A DNA stretch of 10,856 nt, from the IMG/VR virus record IMGVR_UViG_3300045988_151163, positions 1 to 10,856 of that record. One strand, written 5' to 3'. How positions within the stretch are numbered: the stretch's first letter is position 1; each line of letters opens with the position of its first letter. A program made the position numbers and the translations under genes. The stretch comes from a virus. The notes beneath the pieces were generated by a model. The model saw nothing but the letters and a program-made list of their open reading frames with translations, made no database searches and was not told the DNA's origin. Shown here piece by piece: positions 7,660 through 10,856 of this stretch.

Positions 7660-8454
7660 CTATACAGTACATCCGCATCCAGCGTTGCAGCATGCTCTAT
7701 ATCCATATATTCCTGTATAAGGATTTGGAACTTGATATGATGGAACTGGAGCTGGGCTAAGTGCATTTACAAGATATGTATTCTGTGCAGCCTGTGAAGC
7801 AGCAAATTTAAGTGACTGATTCTCAGCTGTAAGAGTAGCAATCTTGTCTTGTGTTAAGAAATCTAAGATACTTCTTGTGTTAGCATCTTGATTAGCTATA
7901 ATATCTCTTGAAGAATCAGCAATGGCTTGTCTTGTTTGACAGCTCTGATCTGCAATATTATAGTTTAAGTTAGCAAACTGAGTTGCGCTCTCGTATCTCT
8001 GATCACAGCAGCATTGAGCGATCTGTGTACCAATACCAGTAAGTTGGCTAGTAATAGCATTTGTATTCTGCATATTAGCTATTGTGTCTGCGTTTACTGC
8101 TGCAGTCACATCAGCTTGAGCGCCCTGAATAGCATTACCTAATGAATTGAACCCATTAAGCATACCTGTGTTCATAGCATAGAATCCATCACAAATACCA
8201 TTGTTTACGCTATCAATTTTTCTTTCGATGTTAGCAAAATCTGTTGTAAGGATATAACCATCAGTAATACCAGAAGCTGTTGCGTCTTTACCACCACCAA
8301 ATAATCCATTACCCCAGTTATCTCCACCGGCAAGAATTAAGATGAAAAGAACAATCCACCAGGAATCTCCTCCCCATCCATTGTTTCTATCGTTTCCGCC
8401 TGTTGCGGCTGCGATATCGGCTAATGAATAGCCATTAGTGTTTCCATTGAACAT
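7660..8454 (-). CDS. membrane protein: YjcZ/tiny-TM-like Gly-rich N-terminus + helical N/Q/A/T-rich domain + Cys-cluster C-terminus (264 aa)
   Basis: AGGAGG lies 7 nt before the ATG. GWGGDSWWIVLFILILAGGDNWGNGLFGGG resembles the Bacillus sporulation tiny-TM family (G-rich followed by a FALIVVLFILLIIVG-type helix). The middle has a heptad-like N/I/Q/A pattern and a CCC triplet. The protein ends YRACCNAGCGCTV. Confidence 0.65.
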   Translation of the reverse strand: MFNGNTNGYSLADIAAATGGNDRNNGWGGDSWWIVLFILILAGGDNWGNGLFGGGKDATASGITDGYILTTDFANIERKIDSVNNGICDGFYAMNTGMLNGFNSLGNAIQGAQADVTAAVNADTIANMQNTNAITSQLTGIGTQIAQCCCDQRYESATQFANLNYNIADQSCQTRQAIADSSRDIIANQDANTRSILDFLTQDKIATLTAENQSLKFAASQAAQNTYLVNALSPAPVPSYQVPNPYTGIYGYRACCNAGCGCTV

Positions 8455-8479
8455 ATGAATGTCCTCCTTTTAATATATA

Positions 8480-8731
8480 TTATTTAACGCCCATTTTGTT
8501 TTTAAAGGCGGTAAATTCTTGATCAAAATTGACACCCTTTTGATTAGATAAATTCTTAGCAATCTGCATTAACTGGAATGAATTTCCCATTTGTGCTAAT
8601 TGCATTAAATTTTGTCCCATAGGAGTCTGTCCCATTCTTTCTTGGAGGATATTCATAGTAATTTGTTGCGGATTTGCTCCACCCTGAATTGCTTGAATAA
8701 TTTGCATTGGATTAAAACCTTGTCCTTGCAT
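8480..8731 (-). CDS. Gln/Met-rich small protein (83 aa), unknown function
   Basis: Weak SD (GAAAGGAAG). Composition about 19% Q and 12% M. Repeated MQ/QxxQ pattern. No Cys. No recognised domain. Confidence 0.5.
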   Translation of the reverse strand: MQGQGFNPMQIIQAIQGGANPQQITMNILQERMGQTPMGQNLMQLAQMGNSFQLMQIAKNLSNQKGVNFDQEFTAFKNKMGVK

Positions 8732-8752
8732 TCTCTCTTCTTCCTTTCTTAT

Positions 8753-9151
8753 TTAAAAATTAAATCCTTCTTTACTTTGCGGTTGTGGGGTTACTTGTGG
8801 CTGTGTAGCTTGAGAAATAGCTTCTTTAACTTTAGCCATAGTTTCCTCAAATTCCTGTTTAGTAACGAAATCACCGACTGCCGCGGTCTTCTCAATAGGC
8901 ACCCAATCATATTCTTCTAATTTAACATTACCATTTAAGTCAATTTGTTTGGTATAAATTTTTTTATTTGCCATATCTGGAAAAACAAAAATACTTCCAT
9001 CAAAATCAACTTGAGCTGCTCTAACTTCATCTACTGATGAAACAAATCTTCCTTTCAAGAGATTCTGTTGCGGCATCTCATATGGAACCTGTCTAGGTGC
9101 ATATGACTGTTGCGGCTGATTTGGATAATAATATGCATTTGGTTGAAACAT
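8753..9151 (-). CDS. small protein with Q/P/Y-rich termini flanking a globular core (132 aa)
   Basis: AAAGGAGGA lies 6 nt before the ATG. N-terminus MFQPNAYYYPNQPQQSYAPRQVPYEMPQQ and C-terminus QATQPQVTPQPQSKEGFNF are low-complexity. The core is KGRFVSSVDEVRAAQVDFDGSIFVFPDMANKKIY.... It is the first gene of the operon. Confidence 0.6.
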   Translation of the reverse strand: MFQPNAYYYPNQPQQSYAPRQVPYEMPQQNLLKGRFVSSVDEVRAAQVDFDGSIFVFPDMANKKIYTKQIDLNGNVKLEEYDWVPIEKTAAVGDFVTKQEFEETMAKVKEAISQATQPQVTPQPQSKEGFNF

Positions 9152-9326
9152 TTAGTTTCCTCCTTTCTGTCATAGATATATCCGAAAAGCTACATATCTA
9201 TTAGCTAGTTTTGTTAGAGAGATAGCAGAGACAAAGAGAAATATTTAAAATTTAACAGGAAATGCTATTTTATGAAGATAAAGAAAAAAGTACGTAAGAT
9301 TAAAAAATAATTAGTTACAATAAAAA
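9152..9326 (-). promoter_or_regulatory. intergenic region expected to carry the promoter and 5'UTR of the 9151-to-6337 operon
   Basis: 175-bp AT-rich gap between the upstream terminator and the first RBS. No clean sigma-A hexamer pair was found by eye; a phage-specific promoter is possible. Confidence 0.3.
9173..9200 (-). repeat. 7-bp inverted repeat (TAGATAT ...14 nt... ATATCTA) just upstream of the operon's first RBS
   Basis: Plus-strand 9173-9179 tagatat and 9194-9200 atatcta are exact reverse complements. The position suits an operator or a 5'UTR hairpin. Confidence 0.4.
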
Positions 9327-9327
9327 A

Positions 9328-9347
9328 GAGCCCTCCTGAGAGGGCTT
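9328..9347 (-). terminator. rho-independent terminator for the large minus-strand gene
   Basis: Stem AGCCCTC/GAGGGCT with loop CTGA. On the minus strand the hairpin is followed by CTTTTTTA. It overlaps the TAA stop at 9347-9349. Confidence 0.6.
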
Positions 9348-9598
9348 TAATTACCTAAATCTACTTTAAATTTTTTAGCTAAATGTTGAATATTTTGTTG
9401 TATTTCTTCATCAGACTGAGATTCTTCTACTATTCCAAAATAATCTATTTTTAATTGTGGAGTATTCAAAGCAGTATTATGATTAAAAGTGGTTTCTTCA
9501 GTTGGAAAAGTGCTTTGTCGATTTCCTATTATTAAAAAGTAATCTCCTTTAGAAAAAGAACCATATGAATCTATAAAATAACTTGCTGATTTTTCCAT
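9347..9598 (-). CDS. C-terminal segment of the large N/Y-rich protein, reached only in the -1 frame (83-aa ORF in isolation)
   Basis: It begins 12 nt after the stop of the 9610-10856 frame. A -1 shift at the A8 run joins the two ORFs into protein-like sequence: ...KPKKNIYVFKTPIVENGKYFAFINNLKMEKSASYF.... Confidence 0.5.
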   Translation of the reverse strand: MEKSASYFIDSYGSFSKGDYFLIIGNRQSTFPTEETTFNHNTALNTPQLKIDYFGIVEESQSDEEIQQNIQHLAKKFKVDLGN

Positions 9599-9609
9599 TT
9601 TTAAATTAT

Positions 9610-10856
9610 TTATAAATGCAAAATATTTACCATTTTCAACAATAGGAGTTTTAAATACATATATATTTTTTTTGGTTTTATATTTTTAGAAATCCAAATT
9701 GCATCTTGATATGTTGGATTAATTATTGAATATACTAAATTTGAATATGATAATAATTTATGATTAAAAGCGTTTGCTCCTCTATGATATTCTGTACTAC
9801 TTAAAGTAGTAGTATTATTATAATTCATTAAAGCATAACCCCACTCTTTTGATATCCATAAACCATTATCATCTTTATAATTTTCATATAATTTATTTAA
9901 ACTAAACATTTCAGGATAATATACAATTTTATCTTTATAAGAGCCTGTAGTTCCTTTAAAAGCAATTCCACTTGTAATTATTTTATGCATATAACCATGT
10001 TGTACTGCATCATAACCAGTCTCATTCTGTAAAGATTCCACTCCAATATCATAAGCAACTAAATAAATTGTTTTATTATAAAAAGGTTTTTTACTCGTCA
10101 ACAATAGTCTATCACCAGCATCCAAGTGAATATATCCCATTTCCATATTGCCATCTGGAACCATTTTTATATTATTATAAATATTTTTATAAAAAGTATT
10201 TTCTTCTTTTCTATCATATATTTTTTCATTATCTTCATAGCATCCTGCCCATAATTCTATTTCAGCATTTTTTAAAATACTTCTTTTTTTATATTTACTC
10301 AAGCCTAAAACAATATTATTATAAGGTAAATAGAATATCCCACCAATATTTATAAATTTTTGCCCCGATCCCGCAATTTCAGTTAAAAAACCAGCAGAAA
10401 CTAAATTTGTTGATATGTATAATCTATCTGTTATCTCACTTGAACCTATTTCTATATTAACACCATTATTAAAAGTACATCTAGTAAATATAACTCTATC
10501 ATCAGAACTTTCAACAACAGGCCCATTAGGAATATTAAATTGACTACATATAGGTTCATCAATTTGAGGATTTCTTACTAATCTGCCATTATGTAAAAAA
10601 TAAATTGCATTATACAATGCATTTCCAAGACTTCCTTTATACCCATTTTCATTAACAATAGGTGAATCACATAAAACAATTAAAGTTTCATATCCAACAC
10701 TATCACATAAAAACCAAAAATAATTTGCATTTTGAGAAGAAGATATATTATATTTAACATTACAATATTTGTCATTTATTAAAAAACTTATATCATTGAT
10801 ATTAGAAATTGCAATATCTGATATACTAGCTCCATTATCTTGCCAAGAGGTTAATT
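9610..10856 (-). CDS. large Asn/Tyr/Ile-rich protein, 5' end beyond the right edge; possible structural or receptor-binding protein
   Basis: I translated by hand upstream of the track's TTG at 10617 and the frame stays open to position 10856. There is no recognisable catalytic motif. The 0-frame ends 21 codons after the A8 run with an implausible tail (IYMYLKLLLLKMVNILHL). Confidence 0.6.
   Translation of the reverse strand, partial: LTSWQDNGASISDIAISNINDISFLINDKYCNVKYNISSSQNANYFWFLCDSVGYETLIVLCDSPIVNENGYKGSLGNALYNAIYFLHNGRLVRNPQIDEPICSQFNIPNGPVVESSDDRVIFTRCTFNNGVNIEIGSSEITDRLYISTNLVSAGFLTEIAGSGQKFINIGGIFYLPYNNIVLGLSKYKKRSILKNAEIELWAGCYEDNEKIYDRKEENTFYKNIYNNIKMVPDGNMEMGYIHLDAGDRLLLTSKKPFYNKTIYLVAYDIGVESLQNETGYDAVQHGYMHKIITSGIAFKGTTGSYKDKIVYYPEMFSLNKLYENYKDDNGLWISKEWGYALMNYNNTTTLSSTEYHRGANAFNHKLLSYSNLVYSIINPTYQDAIWISKNIKPKKIYMYLKLLLLKMVNILHL
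9666..9673 (-). other. T8/A8 homopolymer; in-frame slippery heptamer A_AAA_AAA at the frame junction of the large gene
   Basis: mRNA reads CCA AAA AAA ATA. A -1 slip, or one extra A, continues for about 105 more codons to the stop at 9347. The 0-frame stops after 21 codons. Confidence 0.55.

Follow-up and report, generated by a model that had tools for sequence, protein, structure and literature searches.

We analysed a 10,856-nt stretch of viral DNA (IMG/VR record IMGVR_UViG_3300045988_151163, positions 1 to 10,856; hereafter the window) whose minus strand holds a large gene of ~522 codons, interrupted by a frame change at a run of eight adenines. The window, with a guanine-plus-cytosine (GC) content of 32%, matches at 100% identity a stretch of a 140,206-bp contig of MEGAHIT style (ENA ERZ27260846 k119_208837), of which 20 kb were examined as locus L001; on this contig the gene's ATG lies 58 nt past position 10856. 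The frame change is probably a null allele that arose by replication slippage at a compound A(n)(TA)(n) hotspot in an accessory gene of receptor-binding type, rather than a site of programmed recoding. The features of the gene are as follows.

9610..10856, minus strand: 0-frame part of the gene (homologs P0001-P0016), its 5' end cut by the window edge and its first full codon at 10854
9673-9666, minus strand: A8 run (T8 on the plus strand), the sole homopolymer of at least 8 nt in the 20-kb locus L001
9673-9667, minus strand: heptamer A_AAA_AAA, in the X_XXY_YYZ register
9659..9673, minus strand: compound microsatellite A8 + T(AT)3, 15 nt
9612-9610, minus strand: 0-frame stop TAA, 21 codons on, counting CCA
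9347..9667, minus strand: ancestral C-terminal part, now in the -1 frame, 106 codons plus stop, beginning with AAT at 9667-9665
9349-9347, minus strand: -1 frame stop TAA, with the terminator directly after
9319..9346, minus strand: intrinsic terminator, a 7-bp GC-rich hairpin (AGCCCTC-TCAG-GAGGGCT) followed by the T-tract CTTTTTTATT
9347..9598, minus strand: 83-aa open reading frame (ORF) P0058, called as a gene of its own by gene callers, with no Shine-Dalgarno (SD) sequence at its ATG (9598)
Across the frame change, minus strand: expected junction peptide of a trans-frame product, NIKPKKNIYVFK

Read in the 0-frame, the site is ...AAA CCA(9675-9673) AAA AAA ATA TAT ATG..., after which an out-of-frame tail of 18 junk codons (IYMYLKLLLLKMVNILHL) leads to the TAA; the 0-frame product of this genome is a 434-aa protein (P0059) ending with these 18 residues. 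Elsewhere in the upstream part of the gene, the off-frames meet a stop every 14 and 5.5 codons (7% and 18% per codon), and their longest open stretch is 40 codons. Because they never stay open beyond this length, the 106-codon open tail is genuine coding sequence. Homology confirms this status, the predicted trans-frame peptide ISKNIKPKKNIYVFKTPIVENGKY being identical to P0005. A single terminator-like site was found in the scanned region, against 0.1 expected, and its hairpin and T-tract (9346-9329) follow the -1 frame stop. A preliminary description of this DNA had placed a frame change at the A8 run (9666-9673), with an A_AAA_AAA heptamer in register, a 0-frame stop 21 codons on behind an implausible tail, and a -1 frame open to the stop at 9347. 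Each of these elements is present, the open frame counting 106 codons and its stop abutting the terminator.

The 83-aa ORF within the tail is better read as a gene remnant than as an independent gene, since it lacks an SD sequence while almost every called gene start of the locus has a strong AGGAGG-type one. Termination followed by reinitiation at its ATG, 11 nt past the 0-frame stop, would yield the 83-aa fragment without 23 residues that include two predicted strands; the SD sequence is missing, and nothing speaks for this route. Reassignment of a stop codon at the frame break was also dismissed, the 0-frame stop being TAA and all genes reading normally in code 11. A second 83-aa ORF nearby (window 8480-8731, minus strand) is a conserved small gene in relatives (e.g. 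L010 4181-4432). Its size, equal to that of the ORF at 9347-9598, is a coincidence that could mislead annotation.

The history of the site can be read from its relatives. Using as query the protein with one A restored (502 aa within the window), we found 57 homologs. The full-length forms P0001-P0012 and P0014-P0016 are 50-92% identical to it at 100% coverage and are single proteins of 515-539 aa, and the junction ...ISKNIKPKK[N/Y]IYVFKTP... occurs in all full-length homologs. At the DNA level, the repeat takes these forms.

CC A9 T(AT)3 G, 16 nt, in frame: L005, L006, L010, L012
CC A7 T(AT)4 G, 16 nt, in frame: L002, L007-L009
GTT A8 T, in frame: L003
CC A8 T(AT)3 G, 15 nt, out of frame: window, L001, L013
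CC A7 T(AT)5 G, 18 nt, out of frame: L017

The length of the repeat, A(7-9) then T(AT)(3-5), thereby sets the reading frame within the coding sequence (CDS): 16 nt keeps the frame, and both 15 and 18 nt lose it. The in-frame codings at the site are CCA AAA AAA AAT (A9) or CCA AAA AAA TAT (A7-T, the Tyr allele). The flanks in the window, aaaaatataaaaCC, match the A9 type, and the window is therefore an A9 allele minus one A; ancestral state and indel are both direct observations. A pattern scan of JGI metagenomes added one real locus, L012 with A9, and one chance match (L011).

Within a survey of cluster members comprising ~48 distinct sequences, only one other protein is truncated at the site, namely P0074 (432 aa) from a Logan contig of run SRR27027516 (L017), which is 94.7% identical to L001. 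Here (TA)4 has become (TA)5, a +2 expansion beside the A run, by which the gene is shifted to the wrong frame seen in the window (...PKKYIYMYLKHLLLKMVNILHL*), its tail persisting as an undamaged ORF of 83 aa, P0095. That this event is independent of the one in the window is again observed directly. Such out-of-frame (OFF) alleles make up ~2/37 of the sequences of PKK type, a small sample. A third null allele, at L019 1438-3042 (ENA ERZ943869 k127_468581), has TGA at codon 362 where L004 has TGG (Trp), which we read as a nonsense mutation; it splits the gene into ORFs of 361 and 124 aa. Taken together, the A8 of the window, the (TA)5 of L017 and the nonsense codon of L019 indicate that null alleles of this gene recur in nature, two of the three lying at the 15-18-nt microsatellite.

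Other candidates for this series were set aside. P0017 (L014), which resembled a further A-run frameshift, reflects an internal duplication or misassembly, with CDS ~631-870 repeated after ~983. The short tail ORFs P0096 (L020) and P0097 (L018), considered as frameshifts in the simple sequence repeat (SSR), prove to be junctions with unrelated DNA on short scaffolds. The homology of L018 begins ~12 nt upstream of the A run, beside a tRNA-like-looking sequence, and P0106 diverges just before the KPKK codons. Breaks, duplications and joins with unrelated DNA in or near the gene occur on several short contigs (L014, L018, L020; P0106, P0013). They could be genuine rearrangements, or chimeras that assembly produced where the sequence is of low complexity or varies between strains.

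What is lost with the tail depends on the protein. Searches of PHROGs and Pfam assigned neither the gene nor its paralogs to a family. P0001, modelled with AlphaFold on the basis of 55 homologs, has a predicted local distance difference test score (pLDDT) of 60 overall and of 70-92 over residues ~270-520, the N-terminal half being poorly modelled. Residues ~270-520 are modelled as all-beta, closing with a helix at 502-515, in the manner of a ConA-like lectin beta-sandwich. A conserved C-terminal motif, LKIDYFGIVEESQSDEEIQ.NIQ.LAKKFKVDL, falls within the last ~30-55 residues and is encoded in the -1 frame tail; it is common to the neighbouring paralogs and to the cassette alleles P0018-P0031 described below. 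The frame break falls at ~residue 417, inside the confidently modelled beta-sandwich, and according to the model removes the strands of 417-496 and the helix at 502-515, including the C-terminal motif. The 434-aa truncated product is probably non-functional, as judged from the predicted fold, and without this motif it can hardly be an isoform made on purpose.

The gene closes the tail module. The minus strand of the window represents the end of this module, and in L001 the proteins follow in the order 630, 746, 548, 225, 478 and 434 aa, then the studied gene, which is the last of its same-strand run with a terminator directly after it. The 746-aa upstream protein matches PHROG 1887 ('tail protein') and DUF5048, and the 548-aa protein contains YadA-head-like repeats. 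The last four genes form a tandem array of paralogs (225, 478, 434 and ~522 aa; L001 5203-10252), of which the studied gene is the final member; their N-terminal ~200 aa are common to all four, and the last ~30-55 aa are also common to the three longer ones. Across samples, the last gene occurs as 'cassette' alleles (P0018-P0031) with a near-identical N-terminus, unrelated middles (421-472 aa forms) and the same C-terminal motif, which suggests recombinational swapping of receptor-binding heads.

Both position in the tail module and a predicted carbohydrate- or receptor-binding fold thus speak for a distal tail protein, and the earlier guess of a structural or receptor-binding protein is supported by both. 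The protein combines a conserved N-terminal region of ~200 aa with a variable beta-sandwich of ConA-like lectin type and, at the C-terminus, a short helix that is again conserved, a layout from which we infer a receptor-binding protein. The compared systems are modular phage receptor-binding proteins with ConA-like lectin or carbohydrate-binding module (CBM) heads, such as Dit CBM2 of Lactobacillus phage J-1 (5ly8) and TSP2 of CBA120 (6w4q); unlike these, the studied protein has no detectable sequence similarity to such proteins and no Pfam or PHROG family.

The preliminary description had offered programmed recoding as one explanation, whereby -1 frameshifting on A_AAA_AAA or transcriptional slippage on the A run would produce a short and a long isoform, here of 434 and ~522 aa. 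Several observations invite this view. The register of the heptamer is correct, and reading on in the -1 frame yields the authentic C-terminus; A_AAA_AAA is common among the frameshift sites of insertion sequence (IS) elements (PMC4066793), and runs of nine A/T slip efficiently in bacteria (PMC5009743). A -1 slip would, moreover, rescue both OFF alleles. The register of the heptamer nevertheless carries no statistical weight, because removing one A from Pro-Lys-Lys-Asn, CCA AAA AAA AAT, yields it automatically. The A run is likewise accounted for by codon usage, since the Lys codons of the gene are AAA in 37 cases and AAG in none.

The comparison with related genomes, which had been named beforehand as the observation able to overturn recoding, found four independent relatives with A9 in frame, four with A7-T in frame, and single ORFs in all full-length homologs. 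The split is unconserved, and the two genomes with a frameshift each stand alone, the mutation differing between them; transcriptional slippage of the kind known from T. thermophilus dnaX, IS elements and Shigella mxiE fares no better, as the out-of-frame organisation is unconserved and the relatives are in frame. Neither did we find stimulatory elements. A hairpin or pseudoknot downstream of the run had been named as something to look for, and the sequence there folds no better than its shuffles (z = -0.75 over 56 nt, z = +0.98 over 96 nt), while the 30 nt upstream contain no GGAGG-like sequence that could serve as an SD-like stimulator. This absence of recoding signals is observed directly. 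The short product would also end in the middle of a predicted beta-sandwich, without the conserved C-terminal motif, and the gene, which closes an operon, encodes a distal tail protein of 520 aa instead of the small chaperone that would precede a tape-measure gene.

The efficiencies reported for such sites also argue against a programmed event. Unstimulated heptamers in E. coli reach 2-10 times a background of ~0.07%, well under 1% (PMC4066793). Eight As mark the detection limit for E. coli RNA polymerase, slippage being undetectable below that number, while T7 RNA polymerase slips readily (PMC6260861). The run of the window is A8, efficient slippage by RNA polymerase being documented for nine; how readily this run slips would depend on the polymerase that transcribes the gene. 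The site shares with E. coli dnaX (A_AAA_AAG), the phage G/GT chaperones, the run of nine in T. thermophilus dnaX, and IS elements a slippery A-rich run in register and a productive -1 frame. In contrast to them, its overlap is unconserved, stimulators are absent, the break lies inside a domain, and gene type and position differ. Register is the only one of the four testable features of a programmed -1 site to be found here; conservation, a stimulator and a short product ending at a domain boundary all fail, and with three of the four failing the site falls outside the dnaX or G/GT class. We accordingly regard programmed recoding as extremely improbable, and this part of the preliminary description is not supported by the comparison.

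An unselected leak is a different matter. Going by the published slippage rates, some full-length product from an A8 template is plausible, and it would be small and polymerase-dependent; reporter data from E. coli suggest at most a few percent. Comparable cases are the 'savior' or problem indels with low-level compensatory frameshifting, e.g. at the G7 run of the herpes simplex virus (HSV) thymidine kinase (review PMC5009743). As there, a 1-nt homopolymer indel kills the 0-frame, the same run can allow a little full-length product, and the unshifted product is useless. The present case differs from thymidine kinase in being known as sequence only, and in having no known selective reason for a low product level.

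The A8 itself could be biological or an error. An artefact, in which the true genome is A9 and the consensus has lost one A, was the first option of the preliminary description. Homopolymers are the classic place for indel miscalls, the closest in-frame relatives carry A9 within identical flanks, and the tail is wholly intact. The window's allele recurs in Logan contig L013 (run ERR1136812), which likewise reads A8 and matches L001 at 100% identity over 3,049 bp; the two contigs may have drawn on the same reads. The k119 name, however, denotes a MEGAHIT short-read assembly and Logan uses another assembler, so that A8 was obtained by both. Illumina-type data seldom yield consensus errors in A runs of 8-9 nt. 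The A8 is also the sole frame break in 20 kb of L001, and the (TA)n expansion of L017, which arose independently in this repeat in a different sample and sequence background, shows that genuine slippage mutations do occur there. Since two assemblers agree and a second frameshift arose independently in the same microsatellite, the A8 is probably a real mutation rather than a sequencing error, and we hold the artefact to be quite improbable. Of the option first proposed, the ancestral A9 and the single gene stand, while the reading of the A8 as an error gives way to that of a real mutation.

The course of events we favour is replication slippage. The ancestral site coded for Pro-Lys-Lys-Asn as CCA AAA AAA AAT, an A9 run abutting (TA)3, from which one A was lost, most likely via slipped-strand mispairing during replication. 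The resulting A8 leaves the gene of ~522 codons as a truncated product of 434 aa and an orphan ORF of 83 aa. From this we infer that function was lost and that the gene is dispensable, the loss presumably being tolerated since paralogs remain. The undecayed tail would make the event recent, and reversible in principle by the same mechanism. Some full-length protein may still be made, either because RNA polymerase slips and restores A9 in the mRNA or because ribosomes slip by -1 on A_AAA_AAA without a stimulator, in either case as an unselected by-product.

The substitutions in the tail fit such a recent event. Changes unique to the window comprise 3 synonymous and 4 non-synonymous ones, among the latter S to F and E to Q, which affect residues that do not vary elsewhere, and the counts in intact relatives are comparable (e.g. 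synonymous/non-synonymous 0/5 in L006 and 4/4 in L012). Pairwise ratios of non-synonymous to synonymous substitution rates (dN/dS) of the tail against relatives are 0.3-0.7. Counts and ratios alike fit a recent null, and equally a tail still translated at a low level.

Several points weigh against the slippage-null explanation. Firstly, the 106-codon tail is fully intact, as if it were still translated. Secondly, both independent frameshift alleles have entered the very frame that a -1 slip on A_AAA_AAA would restore. Thirdly, the slippage efficiencies cited above apply to E. coli and T7 polymerases and may differ for the polymerase of the host or phage. Lastly, as the MEGAHIT and Logan contigs may share the same reads, a miscall between A8 and A9 is possible.

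The same mutational mechanism, with selection for mutability added to it, would make the A(n)(TA)(n) repeat an adaptive contingency locus, that is, a selected and reversible ON/OFF switch of an accessory receptor-binding protein. On this view, genomes that express the protein would coexist in phage populations with genomes that do not, as bet-hedging on host range or avoidance of decoys, and the window would represent an OFF state dominating one sample. This corresponds to the phase-variable tract of the preliminary description, which gains some support from the recurrent frameshift of L017 in the same repeat. Two independent OFF alleles at the same 15-18-nt repeat, from different samples, each constitute the assembly consensus and retain undecayed tails. 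No homopolymer in the loci exceeds the A9 tract in length, in spite of a general depletion of long runs: A/T runs of at least 7 nt number 8 in the window versus 19.2 expected from dinucleotide shuffles, and runs of at least 8 nt number 1 in L001 (20 kb) versus ~5.4 expected under an independent and identically distributed model, that one carrying the frameshift.

Precedent exists in T-even phages, where poly-A contingency loci have been described in agt and rIIA of T2/T4, the A9 tracts of T2 agt showing an indel frequency of ~7e-4 and a ~1000-fold faster reversion (Gomez, Barrick & Waters, bioRxiv 10.1101/2025.10.21.683753). As in T2/T4 agt, a coding A9 tract of a phage has here been altered by 1 nt to give a null allele (A9 to A8), with a (TA)n expansion in a second genome. 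Unlike agt, which encodes a DNA-modification enzyme and for which reversion is known, the present gene encodes a tail protein of lectin fold, is represented by consensus sequences only, and its tract is not conserved in the family. A second parallel lies in the hypermutable polyG tracts of Campylobacter phages which, going by the title of a 2021 report by Sorensen et al., are said to generate phenotypic diversity and evasion of bacterial resistance. The genes concerned reportedly encode receptor-binding proteins, and subpopulations and receptor switching are said to have been demonstrated by those authors. In contrast to these tracts, ours is a compound A/TA repeat.

Against selection for mutability stands, in the first place, the codon usage of the gene, as a Lys ratio of 37:0 in favour of AAA explains the tract alone. 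The run is broken by a T (A7-T) in about half of the in-frame relatives, and distant alleles lack the tract, so that mutability is unconserved; selection keeping the repeat beyond its coding need was thus not detected. OFF alleles amount to only the ~2/37 given above, and the third null allele is a plain nonsense codon, suggesting simple dispensability. We therefore think an adaptive contingency locus rather unlikely. The fuller version of this idea, in which a lectin-type receptor-binding protein is switched ON and OFF in gut-phage populations and the slippery run adds a trickle of full-length protein from OFF genomes, is similarly doubtful. Under the slippage-null explanation the site is one more case of a familiar type, a frameshift of the ordinary sort in a homopolymer or microsatellite, and the protein belongs to an unannotated family.

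The phage itself belongs to a lineage known from contigs of ~113-148 kb. The plus strand of the window carries genes of replication and nucleotide metabolism, for a Pol III alpha of DnaE type that includes a PHP domain and for guanylate kinase, NrdD, dUTPase and RuvC. From the SD usage described above, the host is probably a member of the Bacillota. A DNA search of a phage collection with the whole window returned, as sole match, a 72.8% NrdD in MT835469, and the corresponding search of a plasmid collection returned none. With P0001 as query, tblastn found no match in the phage collection, a scan of GTDB genomes found no relative, and a scan of IMG/VR found two distant viral loci only. Rfam and tRNA scans of the window were empty. 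The lineage is an uncharacterised gut phage group with no GenBank phage relative beyond the NrdD match. In the 92%-related genome L002, NrdD is split into 419 and 294 aa (15312-18271) by an inserted gene for a 195-aa HNH endonuclease, an insertion that resembles a mobile intron or homing element; the NrdD of the window (1981-4137) is intact at 718 aa.

For annotation, the publicly called 434-aa and 83-aa 'genes' are to be understood as two halves of one disrupted gene, not as a recoding site and not as separate proteins. For the biology of these phages, the alleles provide a small data point: in nature, gut phages lose accessory genes of receptor-binding type again and again, and a short compound microsatellite is the preferred place of disruption. 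Should mixtures of ON and OFF forms prove true at the level of reads, the site would offer an instance from the field of the contingency loci recently described in laboratory T-even phages. It would then represent SSR-driven bet-hedging on host recognition, visible in metagenomes, and might provide a handle on host range in an uncultured ~140 kb phage lineage.

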